Below are positions 4,860-64,000 of a stretch of DNA of 64,000 nt, one piece after another. Within the stretch, counting starts at the first letter, position 1; each line of letters starts with the position of its first letter. The stretch lies in the NCBI GenBank assembly GCA_043228905.1, contig JBHGNT010000020.1, positions 3,596,001 through 3,660,000 on the forward strand. The letters are read 5' to 3'. The position numbers were made by a program, and so were the translations under genes. The notes beneath the pieces were generated by a model. It saw only the letters and a list, made by a program, of their open reading frames with translations, was not told the origin of the DNA and made no database searches. The DNA is from Azolla caroliniana (taxonomy: Eukaryota > Plantae > Polypodiophyta).

Positions 4860-4980
4860 TGTGTCCCTGGCTTCTCGATTCTTTGGACTTTGCCTTTTCG
4901 GCTCGACCGATCCGATCATTCTTTGACGTTCCTTCTCCTACTATTCATTCGGCTCCTTTCTGCTCGGTTCCTTGTCGCAG
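4534..4980 (-). mobile_element. Displaced 3' tail of copia B (continues at 33220)
   Basis: GCAG flanks both ends of element A (4977-4980 and 33220-33223). Removing A joins this segment to the RNase H end of B. Confidence 0.6.
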
Positions 4981-5293
4981 TGTTGAGAATCAAGCTCAAC
5001 CTAGTCTAGTGTGTGAACACACCCTTGAGAGTGTGCACTCAAAGGTCAAAAGTCACCACTCTTATCTACACATTAACTATGTGTCATAGAATCATATTCT
5101 ATGACACATAACTAATGACTTTTCACATTCCCCATGGCCCATGAGCTTTGGTAGTTAATGAAGAGAGAGAGTGACTATATAAAGCACTCTCCTCCTACTT
5201 TGTAATTAGTTCAGTTAATCTCCTTTGAAATATACATTGTCTTGAGTATTCTATTAGTCTTCAAATCTATCTATCTTGTGTTTCTCTCTCTCT

Positions 5294-5410: not shown

Positions 5411-5921
5411 TGGTATTAGAGTGAGGTTGGTAGCTTGATCTCGCCCATCCGCGTGTGTTGAGCTCTACGCCGATGTTCAAGAAGAACCGGCTCATCGCCT
5501 CATCGCTATCGTAGTGCGACTACATAGCTCGTATTCAAGAGAGAAGAAGAAGGAAGAGATCTACATCGAACACCATGTATACTCAAATGGGGAGCGCTCT
5601 CCCTAGCGAGAAGTTGGACTGAAACAACTTCGCATATTGGGAGTACAAGATGCATCAATACCTTGTCAGTACATCAAAGGAGCACAAGAAAACTTGCCTG
5701 ACCCGGAAGACGCTATCGTGAAGATTTTCGGCAACGGTGTGAAAATTGCGTGAAATCAAGAAGGTGTAATGTGCACACGAATGAAAGGGGTGATGGTTAC
5801 ACTCATACGTTAGCATGTTGTAAATATAAATGTAATGAGAACACCTAAAACCTATTTGCATTTTCAAGCATGCACATACGAAGGGGTGCAAGTATTGAAC
5901 CTTGCACTTCCAAGATAGAAG

Positions 5922-6104
5922 ACAACTGACTTACCATTAGGCTAATCTATTTCTTTAGATCATCATTATGTTTTTCATATATGAATGCTCATACATGAGA
6001 GCTTGGATGAGGTACATGGTCATCATGCATCACATGTGATGCATGAGCACCAAATGGCAATCATGCATTGTATGCATATCTTACACCCTCAAATGCACAT
6101 ATGC
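5922..6104. repeat. Extra 183-bp unit duplicated in the 5' LTR of E only
   Basis: ACAACTGACTTACCATTAGGC occurs at 5922 and 6105 but only once in the 3' LTR. Confidence 0.9.
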
Positions 6105-7065
6105 ACAACTGACTTACCATTAGGCTAATCTATTTCTTTAGATCATCATTATGTTTTTCACATATGAATGCTCATACACGAGAGCTTGGATGAGGTACAT
6201 GGTCATCATGCATGAGCGCCAAATGGCAATCAAGCATTGTATGCATGTCTTACACCCTCACATGCACATATGTATGGGGGCATCTATATAAGTGGGAATC
6301 GATCAATGAATCAAGAGAGCTATGTATCAAGCAAGCTATGGATTAAATCAAGATATCTTAATAAGAAAACCTAGTTATTTTATTGGTGATGTGTCTTGTT
6401 TCTCTAAATTAAAGTCAAGGGTTCAAACCTAGAATTGGAATTTCAATCCGTCAATCAATCAATCAATCTATCTTAAACACTTCCTCCATTTCCGTTTTTC
6501 TCTCTCTCACTCTCAACCACATTAGTGAGTCACTTCAGCTGCCTACACGTCAATCCACCGCATTGTTGAGTTGGGTTTGGGTGCATCTTCGACAACAAAG
6601 GACGACCCGGCAATAAACGAAACGGCCAATTCCTTAGAAACAAAACTCACCCAATTCGTTCTCCTTGGTCAAAGACTTTAGTTGTCCCATTCGACCGACC
6701 CGTAGGCGCCAAAATCCCATCATCAATCCTCCATAACCACTAACGGATAGAGACTTGGTGCTTGTCCGTGTTTGTGATGTGCACATCCTGATGTTTGGCA
6801 CATGTGTCACGTGCCATGCGGCATCTATTTGGTGAACCCGACATGAACAACACAAGGTGGTAATGGGGGCATCGCGAATGATGGATGTGATCTTGGATGC
6901 ATACGACTTAGAGGAGTCGATAATAATAGAAGGTGGTCCGCGGCTTATGATGCTTCCATTTGTAAGGAAGGCCATCGAAATGATGTTTCATGATGATAAG
7001 GATAGAGCGTTGGAGTATCTCAAGTTTGTAAGGTAAGTCGAAAGACTATATCTAGAAATTCCGGA

Positions 7066-8829
7066 TTGGTACGAAGTGGTTCTGACGTCAAGATTTGGGC
7101 CTCAACCTTTTATGGTTTGCTCGATGGTGACGACGATGAAGATGATCGAGATTGGCATAGTTGCGGTTGTGAAGAGACATGTGACGAAGAACAAGGCTTT
7201 GAAGAGAGATATCGAGATCGACATGCCTATGGTCGTTACGAGGATCGTTGCAATCTCGACAAAGGAGAAACATGTGACGAAGAACGTGGACTCAAGAGGG
7301 AAGATCGAAAAGGATGCGATAATGAAGAGACATGGAACAAAGAACATGCGTTCGAGGGGAATGGCCAAGATACTCAAGGATGTGATCATGAAGAGATGTG
7401 CCACAAAGAATGTGGGTTCAAGGGAAAAGACCAAGAACGTGGGATGGAGTGGAAGGACCAAGATACTCAAGGATGCAATCTTGAAGCGAGATGTGACGCA
7501 GAATGTGGACTCAAGAGGGAAGATCGAGAAGGATGCGATAATGAAGAGACATGGAACGAAGAACATGCGTTTGAGGGGAAAGACCAAGATACTCAGGGAT
7601 GCAGTCATGAAGAGACATGTGACAAAGAGCGTGGGCTTGAGGAGAAAGGTCAAGATCTACATGGTCATGACAAAGACAAAGATCATTACAAACTCACAAA
7701 GAGTGCTCGAGATCTACAAGGTTATGATCGTGACAAAGATTACTGCAAACACAAGAGGAGGAATCAATGTCGAGCTCTTCATGGTTGTGCTAATGAAAGA
7801 GCACTCGACGAAAGTCATGACGGTGATTGTAGTTGGGATCAAGACTCTCATGGTTTAGATTTTGATGACAAGTATGATAGGTTTGATGAGAGCCACGAAC
7901 AAGAGAAGAGGTTAGGAAGAGACGAAAACTTTACATTTAAACGTAATGACGGTGATGATAATAACGATATGTATGATTTAGGGCTAGATGATAGTAAGGA
8001 AGAGTGTATTATTGAGGGTGAGAATGAGTGCCATGAGAAGAATGAGGGTTATGATGATAAAAAGTTGTGCACTTTCTATGGATATGGTTACGATAAGGGT
8101 AATGATGAGAATGTGAGTGACGAAGAGGAATTGTGTGTTTTAGGTTGCATTGGGTTTCTTCGAGATAGATTTTATAAGAGTTTCACTAGATCAAATGGTG
8201 ACATTCATGCGGGCATCCATTATGAAAATAGAGTAGGGGTTTGTGATGATGAGGACGTTTTACAAAAATATGTACATGATGATGTGGGGTTACATAATGA
8301 TCACATGGGTATAAGTAAGGAAAATCTAGAAAATGTTATTTGGGACGTGTCTAATGATGATGTTGATGTTGTGAGTTTATGTGGGAAGGATAAGAGTAAT
8401 ATTGAGGATAATCTAGAAAATGCTATGATGGTTTGGGACGTATATGATGATAATGTTGGTGTAGTGAGTGTGTTCAAGAAAGATGAGTTTAGGGTAGATG
8501 ATATTGAATATGATGGTTATCTCGTGATAAATGATTTGGTGATTAAAGATATACTTAACTCAAAGGATGATGATGATGTAAGTACAATTAACATTGAGGT
8601 TGGTATCGAAGAAGATGATATTGTGTTAAAATGGATGGTTATTACTTATAAAGAAGAAAGGAAAGAAGTGATTATGAGGACTACCCATGGGAAGGAAGGG
8701 AAAGATGCATCAAGATGGTGGGATGTCCAACTAAACAGAGGAGGTTGTATTGCCAACATTTTCATATCCCATCTCAAAGAAAAAGATTGGCTAATTAGAA
8801 GAAGCACTCGGTTTTTGGATTCGGTTTGA
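7066..8829 (+). CDS. Internal ORF of E: acidic Asp/Glu-rich protein with Cys-containing tandem repeats; function unknown
   Basis: 587-codon open frame with ETCDEERG / GCDNEETW / DTQGC repeats at about 7170-7760. No RT, integrase or protease motifs. The true start is uncertain; a degenerate upstream frame begins about 6881. Confidence 0.45.
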   Translation: MVRSGSDVKIWASTFYGLLDGDDDEDDRDWHSCGCEETCDEEQGFEERYRDRHAYGRYEDRCNLDKGETCDEERGLKREDRKGCDNEETWNKEHAFEGNGQDTQGCDHEEMCHKECGFKGKDQERGMEWKDQDTQGCNLEARCDAECGLKREDREGCDNEETWNEEHAFEGKDQDTQGCSHEETCDKERGLEEKGQDLHGHDKDKDHYKLTKSARDLQGYDRDKDYCKHKRRNQCRALHGCANERALDESHDGDCSWDQDSHGLDFDDKYDRFDESHEQEKRLGRDENFTFKRNDGDDNNDMYDLGLDDSKEECIIEGENECHEKNEGYDDKKLCTFYGYGYDKGNDENVSDEEELCVLGCIGFLRDRFYKSFTRSNGDIHAGIHYENRVGVCDDEDVLQKYVHDDVGLHNDHMGISKENLENVIWDVSNDDVDVVSLCGKDKSNIEDNLENAMMVWDVYDDNVGVVSVFKKDEFRVDDIEYDGYLVINDLVIKDILNSKDDDDVSTINIEVGIEEDDIVLKWMVITYKEERKEVIMRTTHGKEGKDASRWWDVQLNRGGCIANIFISHLKEKDWLIRRSTRFLDSV

Positions 8830-9357
8830 CAAGCCACATCAACTGCGCTCCAAGAAGATCAAAGAAGGAGGCCGGGTCGGGTATTGGTCTACAAAAAACT
8901 TCGGCAACCAACACAAGACGGCAATAAAGTTCGCAAGAAGTTGGTTCAGATCATATGTGGAGCTAGACGGATCAAGGTTGGCCATACCCATTACCAGGAA
9001 AAGATCTTCCAGAAAAGACTAGTTGAGGGTCCCGAGTTCAATGACCTCAACAATGAAGATAGTAAGGTGGAACCCACAAATGTGAGTGAGGTCAATGAAG
9101 ATGTGGAAGAATCTCACACCGTAGTTGAAATCTCACACTCTTTTCTTGGCACGTACCAGAGGACGTACGGTTTGGTGGGGGTGGATGTCGTGAAGATTTT
9201 CGGCAACCGTGTGAAAATCGTGTGGAATTGAGAAGGTGTAATGTGCACACGAATGAAAGGGGTGATGGTTACACTCATACGTTAGCATGTTGTAAATATA
9301 AATGTAATGAGAACACCTAAAACCTATTTTCATTTTCAAGCATACGAAGGGGTGCAA

Positions 9358-9410
9358 GTATTGAACCTTGCACCTCCAAGATAGAAGACAACTGACTTAC
9401 CATTAGGCTA
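9358..9410 (-). promoter_or_regulatory. tRNA-like Pol III A-box/B-box module in the E 3' LTR (second copy at 5892-5944)
   Basis: Minus strand: TAGCCTAATGG (fits TRGCNNARYGG), then GTTCAATAC (fits GTTCRANNC) 44 nt later, inside the stem GCAAG/CTTGC. Confidence 0.55.
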
Positions 9411-12400
9411 AGCTATTTCTTTATATTATCATTATGTTTTTCACATATGAATGCTCATACATGAGAGCTTGGATGAGGTACATGGTCATCATGCATGAGC
9501 GCCAAATGGCAATCAAGCATTGTATGCATGTCTTACACCCTCACATGCACATATGCATGGGGGCATCTATATAAGTGGGAATCGATCGATGAATCAAGAG
9601 AGCTATGTATCAAGCAAGCTATGGATTAAATCAAGATATCTTAATAAGAAAACCTAGTTATTTTATTGGTGATGTGTCTTGTTTCTCTAAATTAAAGTCA
9701 AGGGCTCAAACCTAGAATTGGAATTTCAATCTGTCAATCAATCAATCTATCTATCTTAAACACTTCCTCCATTTCCGTTTTTCTCTCTCTCACTCTCAAC
9801 CACATTAGTGAGTCACTTCAGCTGCCTACACGTCAATCCACCGCATCGTTGAGTCGGGTTCGGGTGCATCTTCGACAACAAAGGACGACCTGGCAATAAA
9901 CGAAACGGCCAATTCCTTAGAAACAAAACTCACCCGATTTGTTCTCCTTGGTCAAAGACTTCGGTGGTCCCATTTGACCGACTTGTAGGCGCCGAAATCC
10001 CATCATCAATTCTCCATAACCACTAGCGGATAGAGACTTGGTGCTTGTCCGCATTTGTGACGTGCACATCCTGATGTTTGGCATGTGTGTCACGAGCCAC
10101 ACGACAACACCGACTATGCAACATGGGAGCAAGTGGCGAGTCGAGTAATGTATTGCTTGGCGACATGTGTTCACGACCACATGCTTGGTTACATTTGAGA
10201 AATTGAGACGCTGAAGGAAGTGTGGGAAATCTACGAAAGATTTTCGCCGCCAACAAGACTGCGAGGATGCTTCAACTCCGCCAAGAGTTGAACAACATCC
10301 AACAAAGGGATATGTCCATCACAAGCTACACCTTGAAGATCAAGGTGCTTTGTGATGCACTCGGCTCAATAAGCGTCAATGTAGAGGATGAAGAAATGGT
10401 GCAAATATGTCTTAGTGGCCTTGCACCATGATTCAGCGTGATGCGGACCGCCGTACTAACACGGGAGAATCCACCCTCCTTCTTCGATCTTCAATCTATG
10501 CTATTGGTCGAAGAGAATCATGTTCGAACAAGGAGCAACACCTTGTAAGGCCACATGCTCTACACGCATTTGAATGGAGGAAGAGGACGTGGCTGAGCAA
10601 GAAGCCGATTTGGCCAATGACGAGGCGGCGGATGACGTCCGACTTACGACAACAACTCCCAATTTCAGCAACAAGACGGAAGCCATCGAGGAACCTTTGG
10701 AAGAATTGGGAGCTTCCATTCTGGTTTGAGTCGACAAAACTCGATCGAAAGCGGATATTGCGGTAAAATGCCATCATGAAGAAGAGTGCCGGAAGAAGAA
10801 GCGCATGTCGACTTCCACAAGCCGACAACTCACAAATTATGCCACTAACTCCGATTATGGAGGCCTTGGTGGAATGATCGTGATGAGACATAGAGAAAAT
10901 TCTATGCCGGCCTCTACTTCGACTAATGCCTCCAATCCGGAAAATGTATGGTTCGTCGACTCCGGTACTTCGAACCATATGACGTCCTGTCAAGAATGGT
11001 TCTGAGACTTACGAGAGCTAGATCGACCCGGTTATATCGAGACCAGGGATGACACCACTCATCCTATTCGACATATTGGCAATGTCCCATTCGGGGAAGA
11101 CGACGAACAAACTTCCATAAAAAATGTATTACATGTACCCACCATAACGAAGAATTTGGTCTCGGTCAGCCAAATAGTGGAGCAAGGGATGCAAGTTCAA
11201 TTCAACCAAGGTGGTTGCTTCATCGAGAAGGAGGCCGACTCGCTCGGGGTCGAAGGGAAGGTAGAAGGTCTATCCTCAAATCAAACGAGGTGAAATCATC
11301 CATGTACGCAAAGGGCCTCAAATCTGACACCGACATAGAGCTATGGCATAAAAGAATCAACCATATCAATCTCAACAAACTGAAGGCGATACAAACGAAA
11401 GGACTCGTCATCGGGATCCCGACCTTCAAAGAGAAAGAGATTGAAGGAGTATGTGAAGCATGCCAATTCGGCAAGCAACAACGACACCCGTTCCCGAAGG
11501 AGAGGAACGTGAACAAAGGCCTATTGGACGTGGTCCACTCAGATGTGTGGGGACCGGCACAGACGGCTACGTTCGGAGGGTGTCGGTACTATGTTACCTT
11601 CATCGATGACTTCTCTAGATACACATGGATCTTTCCCATGAGGATGAAGAATGAAGTGTTTACACATCTCCAAAAATTCAAACATGAAGTTGAAAAGACA
11701 ACAGGGCGTCATGTACGATGTCTTCGGTCAGATGGAGGAATACTTCTCTGATGCGTTCATAGCATACCTTTGACAAGAAGGAATTCGGCGAGAATTCACT
11801 TGTCAACACACACCGCAACAGAATGGTGTAGTCGAACGCAAGAATCGGCACATCCTCAAAGTAGCAAGGGACATGCTAAATGAGAAGCATATGCCCAAGT
11901 TGTGTTGGGCAGAAGCTGCAAATACCGCCGTCTACCTCATGAACTGGTGCACAACATCCGGAGTGCATGAGGTCACCCCGCACAAGAAATACTATAGGAA
12001 GAAGCCGGATCTATCCCATGTAAGGATATTCGGCTCCATTGCATATGTGCACATTCCCCATGAGAAGCGGTAGAAGCTTGACCCAAAATCAGAGAATTGC
12101 ATCTTCGTGGGGTACTCACTGGAGCAAAAGGGGTGCAAGTGCTTCAACCCCTCTACTCGGAAGACTCATGTAAGTCGGGATGTCGTCTTTGATGAATCGA
12201 CACCATGGTACAAACCCGAGCTGACTCCTCCCGAACCATCTATGAACGACCTCGACAACACAGAAGACGATGATCAAGTAAGGTCAATACTCGAAGAGAG
12301 TCCAATCTCAACCAGATTGAGCGGACCACAAGAGCCTCCGAGCAACCAAAGCACATCTCGGCCAAGTCCAAAGATGGACAAAGGGAAGGCCAAAATGTCG

Positions 12401-21200: not shown

Positions 21201-21282
21201 CCACTGGAGTTGGTGCATACTGACGTGTGTCAAGTGGACACAAAGTCACATGCCGAAGTGCAGTACTTTGTGACGTTAATAG

Positions 21283-24200: not shown

Positions 24201-26796
24201 CTCTAGGACTTCAAATTCCTCAGGAACTATGGATCGGCAGTAAGCCGAATTACGACAAGCTGAGGATCTTCGGATGTGAGGCATACGCCCTTATTCCGAA
24301 AGATGATCGCCGAAAACTTGCACCTCGGTCCAGGAAATGCATTTTCCTCGGATATGGATCAGACGGCGAAATGGGATACCGACTCTGGGACCCCGAACGC
24401 AGACAAATCGTTCGAAGTTCGGACGTTGTGTTCAACGAGTCGGCTATGAATCCATCAGTCGAAAAACCGATCGAAGTCCGAAGGGTAACATTTTCCGATG
24501 TGCTGACCCTCCAAGAAGGCCCCGCTCTTAACACACGGTCAGCTTCACGGGTAGCTGAACCTTACACTACCGACTCGGACAACTCCGACTCGGCACAGCA
24601 GAATAATTCGCTTTCGGACCATCCGACCTCGATACCCGATACGACCAGTCCAATCATACCTCGACGATCCGAGAGACTGTCGCAACCTCCGGAGAGGTAT
24701 TCTCCTGGCATTTTCTTCACCGACGCCGGCGAACCGACGTCTTACGAAGAAGCATCGACATCTGTCGATTCCGCCACCTGGCATCTGGCGATGGAGTCGG
24801 AAATGCACTCCATTCGGGCAAACAAGACTTGGGATCTGGTCGAATTACCTAAGAATCGACGTGCTCTTCCTTGCAAGTGGGTTTATCGACTAAAAGAGAC
24901 GTCTGATTCGACCACCCCAAAGTACAAGGCCAGATTAGTTGCGAAGGGCTTCCGACAAGAATACGGCGTCGACTTCGACGAGATTTTTTCACCAGTGGTG
25001 AAAATGACAACCCTTCGTTTTCTACTCGGCGTAGTGGCAGCCGACAACTTGGGGCTGATTCAGCTAGATGTCAAAACAGCCTTCCTCCATGGTGATCTTG
25101 AAGAGGAAATTTATATGGAGCAGCCAAAAGGCTTCGTGGCAACTGGCCAAGAACATCTAGTCTGCCGACTCAGGAAGAGTCTATACGGCCTCAAATAGGC
25201 ACCGCGACAATGGTACAAGAAGTTCGACGACTTCATCCAATCGATCGGCTTCTCAAAAAGCGATGAGGACCATTGTCTTTTTACCAACACAGCTCAAGAT
25301 GGATCACCCATCTTCCTCATCATTTACGTGGACGACATGCTAATTTCTGGACGCCACGCGGGCGAACTTGCCGATCTCATTCGGCAACTGCGGTTGAAGT
25401 TTGCCATGAAGGACCTCGGTCCGGCACAACACATCCTTGGCATGAAGATTAGTCGGCATCGCGATAAACGACATCTTTTTTTGTCTCAGACCGACTACAT
25501 TGGACGTGTCTTGGAACGCTTCAACATGCAATCAGCCAAATCTGCTTCAACCCCGCTCCCCATGAATCTTCGGCTCTCTCAGCGAGACTGCCCGACATCC
25601 GGTCCGGAGGGGGAAGATATGAAGTCGGTACCGTATGCACCGGCAGTCGGCTCCCTTATGTACCTGATGGTCGCGACACGGCCTAATATTTCTCATGCCG
25701 TAGGAGTCGTTAGCAGATTTATGCACAATCCTGGCAGATCGCATTGGAACGCAGTCAAGCATGTGTTCAAATATCTGGCTGGCACAAAAGAACACGGCAT
25801 TCTTTTCGGTCCGAACTCAACCTCAGGCGTAGTCGGTTACACCGACTCGGACTTCGCCGGCTGTATAGATAGTCGGAAATCAACAACCGGATACTGCTTC
25901 AAATTCGGCAATGGAGCAATTTCGTGGAAGTCGAAACTTCAGGAGTGCACAGCGACCTCAACGACCGAAGCAGAATATGTAGCTGTGTCCGACGCTGCAA
26001 AAGAAGCTTTGTGGCTCGGCCGGCTGGCGCACACGTTTCGGCAAGTCGACCATGACTCGGCTCCAGTTGTCTACAGCGACAGTCAAGGTGCTGTTGCCTT
26101 GTCGAAAAATCCGGTTCACCACAACGCCTCCAAACATATCGACGTTCGATATCACTTCGTTCGGGACTGCGTCATTTCAGGGAAAATCGGTCTAGAGAAA
26201 ATATCCACAACCGACAATGTCGCAGATGGAATGACCAAGTGTCTTTCGGCAGACCGCTTTCGGTCCCTTCGGCATCAGATGGGCGTAACGACAAACCAGT
26301 CCGGTTAGAGCCGGACACAGCGCAGGATGGTTTCGGACAACCGACATCAGTTCCTTAATGATCGGCTTCAACTCTTCCGACCCGACCAGTCCGGTCTTCT
26401 GCCTTCGGACCCTGCCGACTCGAACAAAACGGATATGTCCGAGAACCTAGGTTCATACCTGTAATCTTAGATAACCCATGTATACGCCCATTACGGGGGA
26501 GTGTCGAATACAAGTGTATAATGGACGTATTCACACTATCCCTTGTATAGCTCTAGTTTGGGCCATTTGTGTAATTAGCGTAAAGGGTAGTTGCCCTAAG
26601 TCGGTCACTATATAAAGTGACCTAGTAACCTCTTTGTAAGGTTGGGTGTTGTATTATTGTTTCTATTGAATAGAAAATCTTTTGTGCCTCTCTCTCTCTC
26701 TCTCTCTGTGCACGATCTTGGAAACTGCCATACGCAGGTAATCAGCACGAATCGAATGCTACTTGATCTTCAACATTGACGACATTGTCTCCAACA
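21283..26796 (+). mobile_element. Ty1/copia F2, full-length and very recent
   Basis: LTRs 21283-21579 and 26502-26796 differ only by 2 bp at a CT tract as far as I can see. TSD AATAG; PBS TGGTATCAGAGC 21582-21593; PPT ACGGGGGAG. Removal restores I integrase YFVTLIDDHSRKLW. Confidence 0.97.
22277..26308 (+). pseudogene. Gag-Pol polyprotein of F2 with a single in-frame TAG at 25196-25198
   Basis: Gag, CNYCKKPGHIKADC, protease WLLDSG, integrase VHSDVCGP/RTDNGGEF, RT QLDVKTAFLHG and YVDDML, RNase H TDSDFAG. ORFs 22274-25198 and 25328-26308 share one frame; LK*APR replaces LKQAPR. Confidence 0.95.
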
Positions 26797-28937: not shown

Positions 28938-31629
28938 TGTCGCGAAAATACAACGAGGACACGTGAACTTGAGGCAGGACCCCAGGGCCTCCGACCAGAG
29001 GACATCACATTCGTGCTTTTATATTTTTAACAATTAACAGAAATAAGAAATTTAATAATTTCATTAACAAAGGAAAAGAAAGATTACAATCAATCCCAAG
29101 ATTGGGATTACAAAAAGTTAAGGTAATGGAGATTGTTGGAGTAATAGATTAGAAGAAACTAAGATACGGATTCGATGAGAAAATTAGGGTTTTGAGTGTT
29201 ATGGCTTTCAAGGGAAAATTAGGGTTTCAAGTGTTATGGCTTCCGTAGGGAAAATTAGGGTTTCGAGTGTTATGGCTTCAATAAGATAAGAGAGCTAAGA
29301 AGGAAAAGAAAAATAAAAATATGGAGAGATGATGAGTGTAGGAAAACAAACAGAATTTATATGGAGTTCTCCGTTGATCATAGCCTTCAATGTTACTTTG
29401 CATGCCCACTTTTAGTTGCATGGCCTCTACTTTTAGTTGCATCCATTTTTAGTTGCATGAATTTTTCTTTTAGTTGCATGCGACCGTCCACATGGCCTTT
29501 ACTTTAGTTTCCTTTACTTTACTTTAATTAGCCACATGATCCTATCATCTGTCCGTCTCAATCGCAGCCCATCCAATCCGTCTGGTCCGCATCCGTCCAG
29601 TCCGGTTCCGGTTTGATGACTAGCTGGTTTCGGTTTGATTGCCGACCGGTTCCGATTCACTTTTCGACTAGTTCCGGTTTGCTTACCGGTCGGTTCCATT
29701 TTGATTACCAACCGGTTCCAATTTGCTTACTGGCCGATTCCATTTTGATTACTGGCAAATTATGGTTTGCTTACCGACCGGTTCCATTTTATTACCAGTC
29801 GGTTTTTGGGAACTTGGCCACATTTATCCATCTAGACAAAGTGGCCAAAGTGCTCTTAGCACAAATGAAAAATAAGGGATCTCAATGTGCTTATATAGCC
29901 AGGGCCTTAAGTTTCCTATCTATATGGGATAAATCATTTCTATTTTACCTATCTTCTCAAACTTTATGTTCACATAACTTGATATGTAGTTGTGTATTTT
30001 ATATGTAGTAAAATGCGTTTTGAAGCTCTTGAGTACATCCATATTTCTATAACAAGCCACTAAGCTAATATAAAATACTTATTTTATTATTTATTATTAT
30101 TATTTTAAATAGTTTTCATATCGTGTGTGAAAAACCACACGACATTCACCCCCACCAAACCTACACATCCACCTGTATGTGCAATTGTAGTGAGGTTCCT
30201 CTTTTGATTATTCTACTTCATCGATGTTTCTTCTTTATACCTGAACCGTCGTTGCCATCCGATCCACCATATTCTTCGCTCACTCTTTGCATTTCCGTGG
30301 CTGGTTGCCATGGCTCCCTTTTCTCTTGTAGAGCATAATGCTTCATTCTTTGTGCATGTGCCACCTTCATCTCGACCATCTCCTTGGTCATCTAATTTTC
30401 TTTTATCATTTTTTCTTGTTCCATGCATGCCTTTCGAAGGCCTTATCGAAATACTATTCTTGAGTACTCTTAGTGATCTGTTCTTTAGCGGCATGTTTTC
30501 CTCTAGGTCCTTAAGTGACCACATTGCATGCTTCCCACTTTCTCCACTTTCATGGTATACTCTTGTGTTGAAGTTGACCATGAATTCTACGCTAGTATTA
30601 TCCTTTTTCGATTTTGTGATCACATCTTTCGGATCCGCTTGGCCCATTTGGCCCACGCTTTGCTTTCTAAACTTTGCTCAGTCTCTTTGTCGCACACGTC
30701 AGCTTTTGTCTTCGTGGTTTGCTTGACCTCTTTATTGTATACATCGGCTTTGTCAATCCACTTGTCACCACCTTCCATCTCTTGGGTCTTACATCGGTTA
30801 ATGCTCAAGTCTCTTGAACGAGTGTGGAGGGATCCATACATTTTCATAGTTTGTCTTTGTCGTGCTACCCTTAGCCGCTTCCACCTTATGGTTGTCCGCA
30901 TTGGCTTTGGCCTTTGTTTCTTCAGCGCCACCTTCCATCTCTTGGGTCTTACATTGGTTAATGCCCAAGTCTCAAGAACTTTTGTGGGGAAAGTCTCTTC
31001 ATGATCATTGTCTACCCTCTTCATCTTGACATCTCCCTCTTCTTCGCATGTGTTAGCTTCGGCCTTTACTTCCTCGCCACCACCTTCCGTCTCATGGGCT
31101 TACCGGCCGGTTCCATTTTGATTACTAACTGGTTCCAATTTGCTTACCGGTCGGTTCCATTTTGATTATCGGCAAATTCCGGTTTGCTTACCGACTGGTT
31201 CCGATTTGATTACCGGCCAATTCTGGTTTGCTTACCGGCTGGTTCCGGTTCCATTATCGGCCAATTCCATTTTATTACCAATCAATTTTTGGGAACTTGG
31301 CCATAATCATCCATCTAGACAAAGTGGCCAAAGTGCTCTTAGCACAAATAAAAAATAAGGGATCTCAATGTGCTTATATAGCAAAGGCCTTAAGTTTCCT
31401 ATCTATGTGGGATAAATCATAGTTCTATTTTCCATATCTTCTCAAACTTCATGTTCACATAACTTGATATGTAGTTGTGTATTTTATATGTGGTAAAATA
31501 CGTTTTGAAGCTCTTGAGTACATCCATATTTCTATAACAAGCCACTAAGCTAATATAAAATACTTATTTTATTATTTATTATTATTATTTTAAATAGTTT
31601 TCATATCTTGTGTGAAAAACCACACGACA
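28938..31629 (-). mobile_element. Non-autonomous LTR element G (related to E and H), internally deleted
   Basis: Full 3' LTR 28938-30144; PPT (TTCACCCCCACCAAA on +) 30145-30159; partial 5' LTR 31098-31629. 4-bp TSD ACAG/ACGG; removal restores I RNase H LQKTVALS. Internal repeats encode KTQEMEGGDK, similar to ETGETEGGD in H. Confidence 0.88.
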
Positions 31630-32814: not shown

Positions 32815-33113
32815 TGTTGAGAATCAAGCTCAACCTAGTCTAGTGTGTGAACACACCCTTGAGAGTGTGCACTCAAATGTCAAAAGTCACCACTCTTATC
32901 TACATATTAACTATGTGTCATAGAATCATATTCTATGACACATAACTAATGACTTTTCACATTCCCCATGACCCATGAGCTTTCGGTAGTTAATGAAGAG
33001 AGAGAGTGACTATATAAAGCACTCTCCTCTTACTTTGTAATTAGTTTGGTTAATCTCCTTTGTAATATACATCGTCTTGAGTATTCTATTAGTTTTCAAA
33101 TCTATTTATCTTG

Positions 33114-54742: not shown

Positions 54743-55545
54743 TGTTGGAGTTTGAGACTGTCAATGCAGAAACATGAACAACACCTTATGATGAAGATCA
54801 CCAAGTTAACACGTTAAAGCAAGATCAAAGGGACAGAGTGAGAGAAAGAGAGACAAAGAATGGCACAGAAGATGTAACTGTATTATTCGAACTCAGAGTT
54901 ACAACAAATGAAGGGTACAACCTATGAGCTAGATTACAAAGCCAATTTTATACTAACTAAGCTAGGGTAACTGCACTTTGACATATTTACATAATTGAAG
55001 GGTACAACCTATGAGCTAGGTTACAAAGCCAATTTTATACTAACTAACCTAGGGTAACTGCACTTTGACATATTTACATAATTGAAGGGTACAACCTATG
55101 AGCTAGGTTACAAAGCCAATTTTATACTACCTGAGCTAGGGCAACTACACTTTGACATATTCACATAATTGTCCTAGACCTAGTTTGTCCAAGGGACAAT
55201 GTGAATACGGCCATTAAACACCCGTAGTCGACACTCCCCTGTAATGGGCGTATACACTAAGGAGAGACCTGTAATATAAAACAAAAGATACAGGTTATAC
55301 AAAGAGATGCTATGATAGATTGGCTTGTAAACACAGGCCGAGTCAATGACGACCGAGAGAAAACACAGGCTGAATCAGTTGGTTTGATTGCAGAAGTCGG
55401 TTCAATTGTCAAGGCCGAGTGCTCAAAGCTATCTCTATTGTCCGAATTGATCGGACTAAATACTCCTTAAGCCCATTTGGTGCCGAAGTGACCGAAATCG
55501 ATCAGCTCCGAGACACTTGGTCATCCCGTCTTATATGTTGTCTTA
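54743..55545 (-). mobile_element. Copia J (F family) 3' fragment: RNase H end, PPT and 3' LTR
   Basis: LTR 54743-55233; CTCCCCTGTAATGGGCGTATAC follows it as in F1; DGMTKCLGADRFRSLRHQMG. The LTR holds 3 x 87-bp tandem units (54909, 54996, 55083). Confidence 0.85.
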
Positions 55546-56429
55546 AATGTGGATCGGTTTAATGTTCTTTATTAGCATTTAAAATCGCTTGATCTCATAT
55601 GTCCCTCAGAGGGAAACGGTGATTTAGTGTGATGCACCCTGGCAAACCATTATCGTCTCACAAAAATTGTGGACATTTTAAAAAGAAAATAAGAGAATGC
55701 TTTGTTTGTGTAAAGAGAATCCTCAGGCACAAAAATGAATCGTTGTCCTTGTGAGAAATATGATGATCGATTCTAAGTTACATTCCTTTTCGCTTCCATA
55801 AACAGTGAAGAATCCATAACGATGTGTAACTCTTTTAACACAACCAAACATTTGCCTCATTCACGTTGCAGTATAATGACTATAAACTATGTTTGTGTCT
55901 GCTCATACCTTTGTATCTGGCAGCCATAGATAAACTATGAGAGCTACTTTACTTCCACTACAGAATGGTACCTTGCATAGGCAACATACAGAGATTAATG
56001 GATGTTCAAAACTACCGTACTTCCATAGAATTCCAATGGATAAATACATCAATTCATATTTCCTTATAGTTTCTTTGAAAAATGAAGAGATTTATTCCAC
56101 GAAAGTTGCGCTCTGACATGGATCTCTATGCAAGAAGTCCGAAAGATTGGCAAAAAAGAACGAGAGAGAGATTGAGAGAGGAATTTGCATCGTATCAAGA
56201 TTCACGGTTTCCTTATCATTTCTTCACCAAATGAAGGAAAACTGTGTTCTGACGTGCATATTTCTCATATAAAAGTGATGTCTCATGGAAAGAGAGGTTG
56301 TGGTGAAACAAGATGAGATTAAGGAATTAAGGAAAGAGATTTTGATGTCTCATGGAATCTTATCAAGTGTAATTGTAGCAAAGACTGTGAACTTACATCG
56401 AAATTCTAAACCAGAAATCCATCAGGTGG

Positions 56430-58215
56430 AACATCAGACATGGGCGCCTTTCGACAAAGCTGCAAAAATTAATAGCTTTAGTCGAGTTGTTGCGATTGGG
56501 CTACAAGAAAGGATCCAGGAGCTATAGAGGGAACATCAGACATGGGCATCTTTCGGAAGAGCATTACTGAATGAATACAACCTCAACGATATGTCAAGGA
56601 TGACAAGGCGAGCTTTCATGGATCGGGTAGAGTCTGTTAAACATTTAAGTGTTTTGGAAGTGTTAAAAGAGTATTCAGAAATATTTGAGCAATTAAATGT
56701 TAGGGATAGAAATATAATAATGCCAGATAAAATGTTGTTTCTACAAGCCACTAATATTAAAGACATGAAGGACTTCAGAATGCTTCTAGAAGATCAGAAC
56801 ACTCCGAGTGGACTTACCAAAGACTGGGAGGAGGTGAAAAGGGTGTGCGCCCATTTCTGTAAAAGAAAGTTATGGTTTATGGAGTTGCCTGAGAGGAAGG
56901 TAGACGAAACGGGGAATGACTCAATGGGGGAAAAGAAAGTAGAAGAGTCACTCTTGCATGAATTGGTGAAAGGCATGAAAGACTTGTCAATCAAAGTGAC
57001 AAAGCTGATATTAGGACAAAGCTCAACTTCGTCGAGGCAAGGAGGTGGAATGGTCCGAAGGTGTATGTGGTATGACAGTATTGACCATAAGAAGAAAGAC
57101 TGTCAAGAACATAGGGATGCTCTTAATCATGATAAAATCTATTATCAAAATGGTAAGATTCACTTGACAGAGACTTGACAACCACCTCAACTCAACTTCG
57201 GGTGAGGTGGAATGAAAAAGCTAATGGAAGATGCCGAGAAAGAAACAACTCAACCGATACAATCCGTGGCAACGTTAGGGTTGCATGTAGAAGACTCATA
57301 TGGTGGATCTGGCTTTTGGCAAGATGTGATGGATGATGCAAGAAAAGGGAAGGTTCGAGTGGATGAATTAAAAAGAGCATGAGATGAAATACGGAACTTC
57401 ACTAGATGGAATGATCCAATGACACGCTATTAGCATTCGCCCAAGCGAATGCACGACAGGTAGTAGTGGAAGAGAAGCGAAAGAGAGTTGAGGAGGCTGA
57501 TCCGGCAAAGAAACATGAGACACGAGAACAAAAGAGAAGGGAGATGGAAAAGGGTGCTCCTGAGACGAAGGAGCTGATAGAGTAAAAGGGAAGACATGCC
57601 CATTTTTTAGGCTTGCTTCAAACATAGAAACAACGATGGATATCAAAAAGGTACTAGAAACAAGAATATTAAATAGTAAGGTAGAATTTACTTTAAGATA
57701 AGTGTTGGGTATAGCGAAGAAAGAATTTCATGAAGTTATCATAGATATTATTAGAAGAAAGAGACAGGTGACGAAAGGAAATTATGGGAGGTTGTGCAAC
57801 AACAGTCCAAGATTTGTATGGTGGCACCATCACTGCTACAAGTGTAAAAAAGCAAAAATGATGTTGGGGTTCATGAAGGGGATAAGACCACTGGGCTTGA
57901 GCAACAATGGAGGCGCCTGTAAAAATTGGGGAGCAACAAATTCCATGTATTGCTTTGATCGATCATGGATCCGAGATTAACATGATGTCGTCAGAATTTT
58001 ATGCTCAAAGACGGTGGCCGATTGACAAGAATCATGGGTGGAAGATAAGAGCTACCACAAAGACTACGGAGGATCTATTCAGAGCATGCCTCAGTGTGAA
58101 GGTAACAATTGGAAATGTGTCGGTGAATCAAAATTTATTTGTGCAAGATCGATCAACCTACCCCGTCATCCTTGATGAACCATACATCACTGCAGTAAGG
58201 ATGGAAACAAAGGTG
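56430..58215 (+). pseudogene. Gypsy gag-protease remnant L (Phygy-like), homologous to the Gag of H
   Basis: Gag HQTWASFGRALLNEY...DKMLFLQA...GLTKDWEEVKRVC; knuckle CMWYDSIDHKKKDC; aspartic protease IALIDHGSEINMMS...WPIDKNHGW...YPVIL. Confidence 0.8.
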
Positions 58216-58472
58216 CATGACATTATACCATTTCTCCTTATGTACCTCAGTCATGACCTCTTCATAGCATTCTGGTTCCCCTTCATTAGTCAAGAGAATA
58301 TATTGATTGGTTGGATACCGAGTGGAGGTCTTCCTTTGTCTTCGTGGATATATTCTTCCTTCAACAAACGATTCAGATTCGGTTTCTTCTATAAGCTCAT
58401 CTTCCTTAGAACAACCTTTCACTCTAGGCCTCCGATGAGAAGAGAACAAGCCTTAGAACTGGTTCACACAGA
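58215..58472. other. Two short copia fragments in opposite orientations
   Basis: 58215-58406 (-): YPTNQYILLTNEGEPECYEEVM...KWYNVM. 58407-58472 (+): RTTFHSRPPMRREQALELVHT. Confidence 0.75.
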
Positions 58473-60244
58473 ACTGAGTCGGCTGACACTCAACAACAAA
58501 CACATGCACCCCTTTAATCTTCCTCCAAAATTGCCCTGATGTTTGGTTCTGCTACGGTGTCTGTGTCTGGGGACGGCGTAGGGCCCGTAGGCGCGTCATT
58601 GTGTGGTTCCCCTGCTTAGTCGGGAGGGCTTCCCATGGTGTCGTTGTCGTCCTGTGTGGGCGGTCCGGGTTCTGTTGGCTCTTCTTGGGCTATTGGGGTT
58701 GGTTCAGCCGTTCGCAGGCTTGCGGTAGGTCGCGGCTCTATTTCGTCCGTCACTTCCTCCGTGATGTCGATCGTCGTTGTACGCTCTGGAGAGTGGGGTT
58801 GCAGTTCCTCTTGGTCCGGAACGTCCTCCGTGATGTCAGCCGTAAGCGTATGCTCCGGTGGGTGGGGTTCCTCTTGGTCGGTGGTTTCGCTGTCTGGTAT
58901 TGCGGGGGACTCCGCTCGCCGGTCTGTGCTGTTCACCGTAGTGGTAATTTCTAGTGGCATGGCCTGAGGTTCCTCTTCTTCGGCAATATCTAGAATTGGT
59001 GTCGTGATGGATTCCTTGTTTGTTCACGCACTGCCGGCTTGCGTGATCTAGTGAAACAGGTCCTCCTGACTTTCACCAAAATCATGTAGTAGCTGCGCGA
59101 GTTCCTCGGAATTTTGGTCCGCTAGCGTGCGATAGTCCTGCGCTAGGTCCTCGCATACTGCTGCAATTCTTTCCTCATTGAGTTTGTAGAACCCTCGGCC
59201 GTCTTTCCTTCGGTTCTCCCAGTCCGCTCGATACGTATGCAATTCCGCCACTTGTGCAGCCCATGCCATCCATCCTTTGTCTAGCGCCGATTTTAATTGC
59301 GTCGTAAACCTCTCCTGATTTGTTTGTAGAAGGATACACATGTTGTCTGTTATGGCTTGGCAACGGTTGCGTGCTTCTTCTATAGATTTCTTGAGGTTTG
59401 CAATTTCTTGCTGACTAACCGCCGCCGCTTCCTCATACGTGCTCCTCATTCCTGCCCAAAGCTGGGATTCCTTCGCATGTAGTTCTTCCAGTTTTCCCAT
59501 TTCATTGTCAAGGCGGATTTCTAGGTGATGCCTTCTCTCCTGTTCTCCCACCATCTGCTCATCGAACCATGCTTTCTTCTTCTCCAATAAGGCCCAGAGT
59601 CCCGTGATTGCCGCTTCCGATTTTTTCGCTTCCGCCCGTTGTCGCGAAGATTCGCGCGTGCGTGTGCTACTCGAGCGACCACCGGGGTCTTGGACTGGGG
59701 AGGACGTTCGCGGAATTATCGACGCTAGATGACGATCAATGTAAGATTGGATGAAATTTGTTCACTTGAGAAGAAGAAAGATTGTACACTTGAGAAGTAG
59801 AAAAACATGAAGAAGATAAAGACAAATATGATTATATTGATGATAGTGGTGTTGGTGATATCACATATTGAGCCCCCCTTACACAAGCCCAACTAGAGGC
59901 TTTTATAGGTCTTTCCATGCTCGTGACATGCACATAATCATGGGCTAAAACCATGGTTTTGTGCACACGGTTTTGCTTATGTCATGCACAAACCATGGGT
60001 TTAAAACCATGGTTTTGTGCACATGGTTTTCTATGGTTGTTTCGTCTATAATTTGTATATGAAAAGGAAATACATATAATCTACACTATATGATAGTTGT
60101 CCTAGTGGAAAGGCAATTATCTTGTATCTTAGAGGTGCAAGGTTCAATCCTTGCTTGCACCCCTCTGTATGAACTCAAGTGCCACTAGGCTAGGTTTATC
60201 TGCTAAGTGCATGTGCAATGTTGCACATCCTTGGTTTATTCGTC

Positions 60245-62470
60245 TCACTCGGTTTCACACCGTAGCCGAAAATCGTCACGACATCCACCCCCACCAAACC
60301 CGCACATCCTCCGGTATGTGCCGAGAAAGGTGAAGAGGTGAGATCTTTGGCAATGGTGATCAACCGAGTTCCTCGGCACGCTCGTCGACTTCGTCTTCCA
60401 CTTCGAGTATGCGCAATCTTTCCAACCGAACCACCGTAGCCACCCGATCCACCATCTCCGGCGCTCACACCTTCTTCCCCGATCGGTTGTAGTAGATCTA
60501 TCGAACGATGTCGTCGATACGACCGCTCTTCCTTTGTCCACCGCGCGTGTCCTTCGATTGGACTCCTGGCCACTCCTCACGCTCACCGTCTTCAACTGGG
60601 TATTGTAGATCGTTCGTGTCAATCTCCGATTAGGTCGGGTTTGCCCTTGTCCGGATCGGTCTCCACCGATCGCTTCTTGGCTTGGTTGGTCTTCGTCTGC
60701 ATTCACATTTCCCCGAGTCAGGCTCGACCGATTGATTCTGGCTGGGTCAGCCCCCTTTTGGATCGGAATCGTCCGATCGATTTTCGCCGAATCAGGTTTC
60801 GGCCGGGTCGGCCCCGGTCGATCGGCTCCCATGTGGATCTTCCTTCGTTCGGGTCGGAATCCCGGCCTGATCGTCTTCCGGTTCAACCGGTTCTCGACTC
60901 TTCCTTCCTTCCCGCATGCAACCTCTCCATCGAACTCAACCGCAGCTTCATCCTTGGCCTCTACGTCGGCCATATCCTTCCCTCCGTGTATGCTCGCCTC
61001 GAGCCATATTGTCTCCTCTTCGCCACCTCCTTTATCTTCAGTCTTATGCCGACACACGGTCTCGACTGCCGAAGTCTCCGGAACCGGTGTGAAGGAATCC
61101 CTTCGCTCATGCACATTTACCTTGTCTTCTTCATCGCCCTTCCGGTCGTCCTCTTTTTTGTCCACACATTCCGTCTCTCCGGTCTCACGTTGACACACGT
61201 GCACAACCGCCGAAGTCTCTAGATTAGGTGTGGGGATATCCTTTCTTCCTTGATCTTCTTCCTCCTTGTGTTGGGCCTTCGTCTTCCTGTCACCACCTTC
61301 CGTCTCTCCGGTCTCACGTTGGAACATGGGCGCAACCGCCGAAGTCTCTGGAACAAGCGTGAAGAAAGTGTCGACATGGCTATCCGTCGTCGACTCATCC
61401 ATAGCCACCTCCGACTCGATGTCGTTTGTCATGGCTACCTCCTCAATCTCTTCAGACTCAAACACTTTTTCTCCCTCGATCATGCAAGCTTTTCTCATGC
61501 TTGCGCCGTCATCACCCGATGTTTCGTACACAATGCGTGTTTCGAAACATTTATCCTCCCTCGAAGTGGCCTTCGCCGTCCTCAAGTCATCGGCCTCCTC
61601 CTTCGCCGTCGTTTCTTTGTAAGACAAGAAGGTGACTTGTTTCACACCTTCTCTCTCGATACCGTCATACCGAACCAGAGCCTTTGTATCGGCCACTTCA
61701 TTAACCCGCATTTGTTGGGAGGTCTCTTCTTCCTCGATCACCATTCGCCTCGGTTTTGTCTCCCTTTTAAGCTTCATTTCTTTTGTTGGTGGCGCGTTGT
61801 TGCATCTCGTCCCTATTCGATCGTCCCTCATGGGCCGTCTTGTTGTTGCCGATATTCTCGCTTGCCCCTTATCGTGTAGTCGGCATACACTTTCCACTTT
61901 GCTCCAATCCTCGATGAGGCCATTTGCACCATCATCTTCTTCGAGTTTGAGGCCGATCGCCATCCTTTCCATTCGATCGATTGACTTCACGAACATAAGG
62001 ACCTTATCGACCCCCACCGATCTTTGTTCCCGCTCCGACAATTGAGAAAAATGATGCTCGAAGTCTACGAATGCTTGTGTCGCACCTTGGTGGGTCTTCG
62101 CTGATGTCACCCATTGGTCGAAGTTGCGTCGATCTCGTCCCTTCTGCCTCTCATAGCCATATTCCTCCAATAGAGCCTTCTCGAAAGTCGCCCACGAATC
62201 ATGAGCTTCTAGAAGCTCTTTTACATCTTTGAAGATCGGTTGAGACACCACCCGACAAAAGTACTCTAGCCTCATAGCTTTGTCCACACCTCTTGAATCC
62301 ATCTCCGCATTGTAGACTTTTAGGAAACTTTGGACTTCGGCACCGTTGAAATAACTCATTCGTTCGACCACCTTGTCGACGGCTTGTTGGGCTTCATTTC
62401 TTCTTTTCCCTTCTCTCAGAAACTCCATCATCCTTCTTGACATTGCCTCCATGAGATATTCGCCATCCAT
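60245..62470 (-). CDS. 741-aa Gag-like protein with a long acidic, repetitive tail; no protease, RT or integrase
   Basis: ATG about 20 nt after the PBS. The N-terminal ~200 aa align by eye with L Gag (HDSWATFEKALLEEY...DKVLMFVK...GLIEDWSKVESVC). PETSAV...RETGETE repeats. The frame runs through the PPT and stops inside the 3' LTR. Confidence 0.85.
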   Translation of the reverse strand: MDGEYLMEAMSRRMMEFLREGKRRNEAQQAVDKVVERMSYFNGAEVQSFLKVYNAEMDSRGVDKAMRLEYFCRVVSQPIFKDVKELLEAHDSWATFEKALLEEYGYERQKGRDRRNFDQWVTSAKTHQGATQAFVDFEHHFSQLSEREQRSVGVDKVLMFVKSIDRMERMAIGLKLEEDDGANGLIEDWSKVESVCRLHDKGQARISATTRRPMRDDRIGTRCNNAPPTKEMKLKRETKPRRMVIEEEETSQQMRVNEVADTKALVRYDGIEREGVKQVTFLSYKETTAKEEADDLRTAKATSREDKCFETRIVYETSGDDGASMRKACMIEGEKVFESEEIEEVAMTNDIESEVAMDESTTDSHVDTFFTLVPETSAVAPMFQRETGETEGGDRKTKAQHKEEEDQGRKDIPTPNLETSAVVHVCQRETGETECVDKKEDDRKGDEEDKVNVHERRDSFTPVPETSAVETVCRHKTEDKGGGEEETIWLEASIHGGKDMADVEAKDEAAVEFDGEVACGKEGRVENRLNRKTIRPGFRPERRKIHMGADRPGPTRPKPDSAKIDRTIPIQKGADPARINRSSLTRGNVNADEDQPSQEAIGGDRSGQGQTRPNRRLTRTIYNTQLKTVSVRSGQESNRRTRAVDKGRAVVSTTSFDRSTTTDRGRRCERRRWWIGWLRWFGWKDCAYSKWKTKSTSVPRNSVDHHCQRSHLFTFLGTYRRMCGFGGGGCRDDFRLRCETE

Positions 62471-62972
62471 CTTCGTTCTCCCCTACTGCTCTTCACGTCG
62501 GGTTCACCAAATGATGTCGCGAAGATTCGCGCGTGCGTGTGCTACTCGAGCGACCACCGGGGTCTTGGACTGGGGAGGACGTTCGCGGAATTATCGACGC
62601 TAGATGACGATCAATGTAAGATTGGATGAAATTTGTTCACTTGAGAAGAAGAAAGATTGTACACTTGAGAAGTAGAAAAACATGAAGAAGATAAAGACAA
62701 ATATAATTATATTGATGATAGTGGTGTTGGTGATATCACATATTGAGCCCCCCTTACACAAGCCCAACTAGAGGCTTTTATAGGTCTTTCCATGCTCGTG
62801 ACATGCACATAACCATGGGCTAAAACCATGGTTTTGTGCACACGGTTTTGCTTATGTCATGCACAAACCATGGGTTTAAAACCATGGTTTTGTGCACATG
62901 GTTTTCTATGGTTGTTTCGTCTATAATTTGTATATGAAAAGGAAATACATATAATCTACACTATATGATAGT

Positions 62973-63025
62973 TGTCCTAGTGGTAAGGCAATTATCTTGT
63001 ATCTTAGAGGTGCAAGGTTCAATCC
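62973..63025 (+). promoter_or_regulatory. tRNA-like Pol III A-box/B-box module in the H 5' LTR (second copy at 60098-60150)
   Basis: TGTCCTAGTGGTAAGGC (A-box/D-arm-like, 1 mismatch), then GTTCAATCC 44 nt later inside the stem GCAAG/CTTGC. Confidence 0.55.
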
Positions 63026-64000
63026 TTGCTTGCACCCCTCTGTATGAACTCAAGTGCCACTAGGCTAGGTTTATTTGCTAAGTGCATGTGCAATGTTGCA
63101 CATCCTTGGTTTATTCGTCTCACTCGGTTTCACACCGTAGCCGAAAATCGTCACGACACCGTAATTGGGCATTTTCTTCTTTCGTTCGGGTGTGTTGTGC
63201 TGTCTCCACTGCGAGTTTCTCTTCAAGGGTCTTCATTGCCTTTCGGCCGTTGGCCCGGATGTCCTTTTCTCTATCCGAGGATTGGCGAAGTTCAGCGCGG
63301 AGATGGTCAATCTTTTTTAAAATTGCTTAAAGTGTGCGGCACTTCATCGGGGGTTGTTTGGGGTGGACTCAAGTTTAGATCTTAAAAAAGCATTGATATA
63401 TTATACCCCTAGTGCTTGCCACTCATCACTTCATATCATATATACTATATCCCTTGTAGTCATATACCAACATAAATTTCTATTTTTATTACATCATATA
63501 TTCTATACCTCCTAGAAGTCGTACACCCCCATAAACTTGGTTTTCTTCCCTCTACTTCTCTTACTCTTTCAATTCTCCATACTAATAACTTTACCCCTAC
63601 AAAAACTAGCAACTATTACAAAACCCTAAACCCTAACCTTCTAAACATACGCTCCATCCTACCCCACACTACCATATTTCCCTCTCTCATATCTTTCCCT
63701 CTTTTTCTCCCCTTCTCTCCTCTCTCTCCTCTTTTGTTCCAATACAGATACATGGCCACAAACGTCTCAACAGGAGAACCCAAAACACAATCCATTCAAC
63801 ATCGTACACCCAACGCCGACGCACCCACAGATCCACCCTCAACCACCATCGCCGACATACCGACGGATCTACCCACAACCACCATCGACTTTGTGCCGGA
63901 TTCTCCACCAATGACGACAAATCTCAAGCACGTCGTCGCCAACACTCAAACGACCGTTGTAAACAAGGAAGCTCCCTCACCCCACCCTCTTTCTTGTCAA

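Follow-up and report, generated by a model that had tools for sequence, protein, structure and literature searches.

A tRNA-derived promoter block in the U3 region of Phygy-type Gypsy LTRs, a candidate TFIIIC site upstream of the predicted Pol II promoter

The long terminal repeats (LTRs) belonging to two retrotransposons, designated E and H, in the window (the whole 64,000-nucleotide stretch of DNA analysed here) carry in U3 a tRNA-derived block that no longer forms a cloverleaf but retains the A and B boxes of a tRNA-type Pol III promoter. Blocks of the same kind recur in other LTR families, in either orientation and at a nearly constant distance upstream of a TATA-like box. The reading we favor, at a probability of roughly 45%, is that a captured tRNA promoter core is kept as a predicted TFIIIC site, acting at the DNA level beside the Pol II promoter of the element. 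Free orientation, lost cloverleaf, kept boxes and fixed TATA distance, taken together, fit such a site better than they fit a functional transcript.

The window consists of nested LTR-retrotransposon DNA from a plant, probably a seedless one. Element H, 3.5 kb in length and encoded on the minus strand, has an LTR pair only 4 differences apart, with the 5' LTR (644 bp, TG...CA) at 62515..63158 and the 3' LTR at 59640..60283. On the same strand are a primer-binding site (62494..62509), a gag-like ORF of 745 codons with no pol (60245..62482; gag profile E-value 3.5e-67) and a polypurine tract, or PPT (60284..60300), which is common to E and G; the target duplication, CCGT/CCGT at 59636-59639 and 63159-63162, is of NCGN type. 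The H ORF itself returned no Pfam match, while its relatives carry Retrotrans_gag or DUF4100, the named ones being from Adiantum and Riccia at about 30% identity. Element E occupies 5714-10106 of the plus strand (4.4 kb), and its primer site and PPT are identical to those of H. It has a 5' LTR at 5714..6822, a primer-binding site at 6830..6845, an internal ORF in a 607-codon frame at 7006..8829 and a 921-bp 3' LTR at 9186..10106, all on the plus strand, and it is flanked by ACGC (5710-5713) and ACAC (10107-10110), which have one difference. Searches of the E ORF with Pfam and the gag profile gave no match, so that the initial annotation's description of the carriers as gag-coding holds for H and is not supported for E, whose ORF cannot be recognised as gag. 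One metagenome locus, L001, has an ORF 63-74% identical to that of E, both being repetitive, acidic and about 600 codons long, and the LTR of that locus has a block of the H type. The primer site of E and H, also present in 17 loci, is one we take to be of tRNA-Trp type, in agreement with a row of the Phygy supplement.

By these sequence marks, E and H are Phygy-type Gypsy elements (non-chromovirus Ty3/gypsy), an assignment made by target duplication, primer site and domain order. The clade was described from Physcomitrella, with a 4-bp NCGN target duplication and a tRNA-Trp primer site as its marks (PMC6317226). The likeness extends to the target sites of H (CCGT/CCGT) and of E (ACGC/ACAC, with the one difference), to the Trp-type primer site, and to loci L055, L019 and L074, which have the order RT-RH-INT, no chromodomain, and a PPT and LTR start in common with E and H. 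Unlike the elements of that description, E and H are non-autonomous, and the passages of the source that describe the clade mention no tRNA-like LTR block (PMC6317226). The nearest named relatives of the pol sequences are proteins of the liverwort Riccia sorocarpa, at 65%. Also in the window is element G (29600-31629, minus strand), with Phygy-type ends and PPT, LTR ends that are short tandem repeats, and an insertion point at an NCGN site within a Copia RNase H region; a primer site was looked for in G and not found. A decayed gag and protease at 56400-58250 (plus strand) mark a further Phygy-like element, around which no LTRs were seen and no block lies nearby.

In H, the tRNA-derived block lies on the plus strand, antisense to the element, at 62973..63028 in the 5' LTR (Rfam RF00005 alignment, and profile E-value 4e-16 as a member of the profile seed) and at 60098..60153 in the 3' LTR. 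Its A box, TGTCCTAGTGG, is found at 62973-62983 and 60098-60108, and its B box, GGTTCAATCC, at 63016-63025 and 60141-60150, within a short inverted repeat. In E the block lies on the minus strand, at 5889..5944 in the 5' LTR and 9355..9410 in the 3' LTR, with the A box TAGCCTAATGG at 5944-5934 and 9410-9400 and the B box GGTTCAATAC at 5901-5892 and 9367-9358. The A and B boxes thus occupy the places given for them by the initial annotation in all four LTRs and stand in tRNA register, 44 nt from the start of the A box to the G of GTTCAAT. TAAG, stated to follow the A box, does so in three of the four copies, but the H 3' LTR has AAAG (A at 60109). E and H LTRs share a 71-nt block with 82% identity (E-value 1e-15) and their first 31 nt, with nothing else below an E-value of 0.01, just as had been noticed by eye. 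The boxes do face opposite to the element, H having its primer site and PPT on the minus strand and E on the plus strand. Both B boxes are intact against GWTCRANNC, and since an A box and a workable spacing accompany them, the blocks of E and H have the sequence features of a type 2 Pol III promoter. An A+B pair at 42-46 nt with no more than one mismatch occurs in the whole 64 kb at the four E and H LTR sites only. G, reported to lack the module, does lack it by profile search, although both of its LTRs hold a sense A-box-like 11-mer (30057..30067 and 31542..31552, minus strand) without an intact B box, the only candidate being a B-like site with 2 mismatches.

Two further features of these LTRs deserve description. 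H has a second, sense A-box-like 11-mer at 63057..63067 (minus strand), 42 nt from the reverse reading of the palindromic B box; no two-way promoter is claimed, because across the H family this 11-mer shows identities of 0.33-0.82, which is not above background. E has a second, decayed tRNA-like block in sense orientation at 6376..6429 (plus strand) of its 5' LTR, with a counterpart at 9659-9712 (plus strand) in the 3' LTR whose B box is damaged and with homologues in L002 and L073 (profile E-values 0.002-0.003). An internal duplication within the E 5' LTR (5922-6103 / 6105-6272) copies the A-box half of the antisense block only, at 6127-6117.

Covariance-model evidence places the block within the tRNA family while separating it from any gene for a tRNA. 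In a narrow scan of H, positions 8-63 of Rfam RF00005 align to 62973-63028 with one insertion and one deletion; the score for the H block, 13.2 bits with an E-value of 2.8, is below the gathering threshold of 29. Rfam found no tRNA match over the whole window, over 660-800 of L055, or over ten short loci, and ARAGORN called 0 tRNA genes in the window (with lowered thresholds its output is noise, 194 calls at -ps80). When 16 families are set in tRNA numbering, the acceptor and anticodon stems are paired at 23-49% and the D and T stems at 58-71%. Because the former pair near chance, as had been claimed from E and H, we conclude that no tRNA is made, and a functional tRNA gene is rejected on the missing cloverleaf, the ARAGORN result and the sub-threshold Rfam score. 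A copy of the primer tRNA is rejected as well, the primer 3' end having CACGT at positions 61-65 and the block CTTGC; so is a shifted T stem as a general feature, which is paired at 67% in antisense and 40% in sense blocks. All profile matches with E-values below 0.02 in 324 kb of loci, fetched by LTR, lie in a Phygy-type LTR wherever the context is readable, and no free-standing SINE-like copy was seen in that sample, which is biased to LTRs. A captured tRNA-type promoter in U3 of larger ORF-bearing elements is what is supported of the suggestion of a captured tRNA or SINE head, a SINE being one possible source of it.

A metagenome scan by a PPT/LTR-start pattern, blind to the block, returned at least 121 loci, and viral contigs held no match to that pattern. 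With the window included there were at least 125 matches, from which 7 that were not LTR-like and 19 shorter than 150 nt were dropped, leaving 99 LTRs in 51 families. A fixed textbook A+B consensus with a spacing of 42-46 nt, a range chosen from the E and H finding itself, is present with up to 2 mismatches in 12 of the 51 family representatives among the matches listed, against a mean of 0.31 and a maximum of 2 in 100 dinucleotide shuffles and 2/28 and 3/27 in control stretches. With one mismatch at most the count is 8 of 51 representatives among the matches listed, and 0 in the shuffles and all controls. When the spacing is left free (25-89), A+B counts peak at 43-44. Among the matches listed, a profile built from 21 blocks, whose seeds match by construction, detects the block in 36 of the 99 LTRs, which belong to 16 of the 51 families, and it gives no match in reversed sequence.

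Among the 16 carrier families listed, nine hold the block in antisense orientation and seven in sense, so that antisense is not the rule, and the proposal of a specifically antisense promoter is not supported; one of the sense families, L006/L055, has an uninterrupted pol of 1174 aa with RT, RNase H and integrase domains. This freedom of orientation suits a role at the DNA level. The remaining 35 of the 51 families among the matches listed, including the pol-bearing L019 and L074, have no block, which makes it dispensable; many of these LTRs are only partly visible, a TATA-like box being seen in 15 of the 35. Several LTRs are composites. L021 (LTR 1-850) and L078 (1-710) join the head of one family to a U3 segment of another, with block and TATA-like box, and in the chimeric LTR of L046 (850-1067) the join falls within the block, past the A box. 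The LTR of L052 (885-1247) ends about 17 nt short of the A box on the upstream side, and the sequence beyond matches no other locus. It is one case in 37 metagenome matches inspected, and either an insertion directed at a Pol III site or an ordinary rearrangement could account for it. An upstream motif shared by sense and antisense groups, which would link them to one capture, was present in 9 of 16 families against a shuffle mean of 5.5 and was not significant (P 0.06).

The comparisons show the block to be real and lineage-wide, and they provide moderate evidence for constraint upon it. From G18 to T54 the distance is 35-37 nt in 16 of 16 families, with spacers only 0.16-0.24 identical, so the conserved spacing noted in E and H extends across families. 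AGGT in the variable loop, which lies outside the search motif, is common to sense and antisense groups, and the flanks are about 0.3-0.4 identical; the cross-family alignment was anchored on A-box core columns, which therefore carry no weight in it. Family 0 was delimited on the resemblance of its LTRs as a whole, and 11 of its 12 members were compared, a duplicate having been removed. Identity in its box columns is 0.945, as compared with 0.71 in the anticodon arm and 0.76 in the remaining U3 columns, the latter gap-poor and non-CpG (unfiltered values are stronger); the boxes differ from other U3 columns at P 0.006 and from the rest of the block at P 0.004. For seven hand-picked E-type LTRs the values are 0.87 for boxes, 0.76 for anticodon arm and 0.70 for U3 (P 0.009). 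The expectation that box residues vary less than their neighbors is thus borne out in family 0, but for the E-type LTRs a comparison within the block gives no clear excess of box conservation (P 0.11). All of these P values are rough and inflated, because the sequences are related.

Variation within public DNA contigs of three related organisms points the same way. Counting as common any variant above 6%, 7 of the 17 positions in the anticodon arm are affected and 1 of the 20 in the variable loop and T arm (Fisher P 0.014). The report behind these counts stops roughly 30 nt short of either end, so that the A box lies outside it, and another variant listing comprises 40 of 135 rows. The single T-arm-side variant is the free position N59 (63023), the sole common variant in 63008-63027. 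Contig depth peaks over the B box were not taken as copy numbers. The invariant B-box bases are all intact in nine of the 16 family representatives; of the others, five have C56T, a CpG-decay product, one G53A and one C61T. TTTGA occurs in 5 families and TTCAA in 8, both of them decay products of TTCGA. In yeast, loss of that B-box C severely lowers TFIIIC binding (PMC4228148).

Relative to the predicted Pol II promoter, placement is regular. TATA-like boxes, which are motif calls with promoter function supposed from them, lie at 62775..62783 (minus strand) in the H 5' LTR, 190 nt from the A box, and at 9567-9575 (plus strand) in the E 3' LTR, 157 nt from the block. In all eleven carrier families with a TATA call, among the matches listed, the block is upstream of the TATA-like box; the exception is the second, decayed sense block of E, which sits downstream. 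In nine antisense LTRs, representing about three U3 backbones, A box and TATA-like box are 157-205 nt apart (sd 17), and A box and LTR start 136-663 nt (sd 180); sense blocks are about 146-215 nt from the TATA-like box. Upstream flanks of the block are 68-90% AT. Of the 7 sense families, 5 have a T4 run no more than 38 nt past the B box, and of the 9 antisense families, 7 have one no more than 51 nt past it, counts made without a shuffle control. H has no T4 within its LTR; the first to follow lies at 146 nt, beyond the element, or at 605 nt, within gag. The blocks of H and E have somewhat better folds than shuffled sequence (z -1.8 to -2.4); for the L055 block, which is in sense, no such advantage is seen (z +0.9). 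Between block and TATA-like box, the H U3 holds palindromic AAAACCATGG repeats (62807-62903 and 59932-60028) that are well conserved in family 0 and can fold as a long hairpin, with a weak match to MIR1513.

A TFIIIC site of the kind we favor would have arisen by capture from a tRNA gene or the head of a tRNA-derived SINE, either once with later inversion or repeatedly, and U3 recombination would spread the block between LTR families. TFIIIC would bind the B and A boxes and would load TFIIIB on the AT-rich flank; nucleosomes would be positioned by this complex, which would stand as a barrier or roadblock at a distance of about one nucleosome from the TATA box, and the Pol II promoter would thereby stay usable although the chromatin is repeat-dense. 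Pol II would still produce the genomic RNA, with any short RNA from Pol III as a by-product. Yeast Pol III complexes have barrier, insulator, nucleosome-phasing and roadblock effects beyond transcription, and yeast tRNA genes can also have the opposite effect, repressing nearby Pol II promoters (PMC4228148). The wider proposition, that full-length plant Gypsy elements able to mobilise themselves, together with their parasites, bear in U3 a swappable, reversible tRNA-promoter cassette that recruits Pol III factors of the host, fences off and keeps open their own Pol II promoter and counters silencing, is speculative, and we regard it as doubtful.

Were the short RNA itself the point, as a decoy, a small-RNA precursor or an antisense regulator, the block would be a working Pol III mini-gene. 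That A box, B box and spacing are all kept, and not the B box alone, would then be expected; T4 runs stand close behind the B box in most families, the H and E blocks show their modest folding excess, and Pol III transcripts from foamy-virus LTRs provide a precedent in the published account consulted (PMC3993851). The families nevertheless have no RNA sequence or fold in common beyond the boxes, as the z of +0.9 for L055 illustrates, and H lacks a T4 inside the LTR, so we hold the mini-gene to be unlikely. Slightly less likely again, in our judgment, is a neutral relic, an old piece of tRNA or SINE that rides in successful swapped U3 cassettes and has no current function. The 35 of 51 families among the matches listed that do without the block, the B boxes damaged in 7 of 16, the CpG-decay forms TTTGA and TTCAA (5 and 8 families), the swapping of U3 seen in the chimeric L021, L078 and L046, and the half-copies in the E duplication and L046 are all what such a relic would leave. 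It does not explain why substitutions avoid the boxes and fall on the anticodon arm and N59, why the block is the sole alignable part of an otherwise unalignable E/H U3, or why spacing stays fixed across spacers diverged to 0.16-0.24 identity.

An improbable reading makes the block a Pol II factor site or palindrome that merely resembles a tRNA promoter, or a landing pad for elements that target Pol III sites. The B box does sit in an inverted repeat and is nearly a B box on both strands, and L052 breaks about 17 nt upstream of the A box (1 of 37 matches); a full tRNA register that includes the 3' side of the D arm and the variable loop would be unexpected of a Pol II site, and by eye the other inspected matches keep ordinary U3 upstream, contrary to a landing pad. 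Pairing at the RNA level is very improbable. In HIV-1, pairing of U3-R with the primer tRNA reportedly helps minus-strand transfer, and the antisense position in U3, with conserved bases that are the universal loop bases of tRNA, would allow genomic RNA of the antisense families to pair likewise with the D and T loops of the primer. The block mismatches that tRNA at positions 61-65, however (CTTGC, CACGT), and in seven families, including the pol-bearing one, it is in sense orientation and cannot pair. To the idea that Pol III makes the genomic RNA of the element, as in Cassandra and as proposed for Helenus, we give almost no credence: seven families have the block in sense, as it would need, but E, H and seven other families have it in antisense, T runs occur 23-38 nt behind the sense blocks in 5 of 7, and the elements are protein-coding, 3.5 to over 6 kb long, with a TATA-like box downstream. 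A block borne by coding elements in both orientations, upstream of a predicted Pol II promoter, cannot serve to make genomic RNA.

Pol III promoters in plant LTRs are described from miniature, non-coding elements, whose transcription they are thought to drive. Helenus TRIMs, described by Kojima in 2024, have tRNA-derived sequence in both LTRs with conserved A and B boxes and no functional tRNA, and their proposed origin is a piece of SINE or tRNA entering an LTR (PMC10886601). E and H resemble Helenus/TRIMp3 in having tRNA-derived A and B boxes in both LTRs. Helenus elements are non-coding and 311-1263 bp long (the screen limit being 1 kb), with transcription proposed from the tRNA-like promoter (PMC10886601), whereas the carriers described here are at least 3.5 kb, contain ORFs, include one family with intact pol, and have the block in U3 upstream of a TATA-like box in either orientation. 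The sole plant Helenus in the portions of that study used here, from Selaginella and compared by eye, has a 120-bp LTR, a 5-bp target duplication and a near-complete tRNA in sense orientation (PMC10886601). Membership of E and H in Helenus/TRIMp3 is rejected on size, coding content and orientation, and most sense copies have T runs a short way downstream. Helenus-like elements could arise from a larger carrier that shrank. The same source remarks that tRNA-like parts are present in "not a few LTRs" of Repbase, and it covers TRIMs only (PMC10886601), so that related cases may sit undescribed in Repbase; that LTRs can acquire such motifs is repeated, in the part available, by a paper of 2026 (PMC13570524). 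Full-text literature searches, whose coverage left subscription journals and Repbase largely outside, did not turn up any account of a Phygy LTR with a block of this kind.

Other systems share single aspects. Cassandra TRIMs also have the Pol III promoter of a small-RNA gene inside plant LTRs, but theirs is 5S-derived, in sense, and drives the transcript of a non-coding element, in the account given with Helenus (PMC10886601). The miRNA genes of foamy-virus LTRs are A/B-box Pol III units in the LTR of a coding retroelement otherwise transcribed by Pol II; a functional RNA from them, provided with hairpin and terminator, has been demonstrated (PMC3993851), whereas the block described here is tRNA-derived and has no common RNA fold. 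Yeast tDNA and ETC sites, as treated in the sections cited, are TFIIIC sites with product-independent effects on neighboring Pol II transcription and chromatin, but they are host loci and not retrotransposon-borne, ETC sites need no Pol III, and the sections cited show no such case in plants (PMC4228148). Sister families with, without and with a flipped block constitute a ready comparison for TFIIIC boundaries in plants and for their use by transposons against silencing.

Other repeats of the window may be recorded here. Two Copia copies, at 13115-18125 and 21281-26705, are about 85% alike and inverted relative to each other, with another element between them. An 87-bp unit is repeated three times in tandem at 54906-55171, at the end of a Copia-like LTR; an exact tandem duplication of about 165 bp lies at 4534-4865; and a 46-bp palindrome at 5071-5117 is repeated at 32906-32951.
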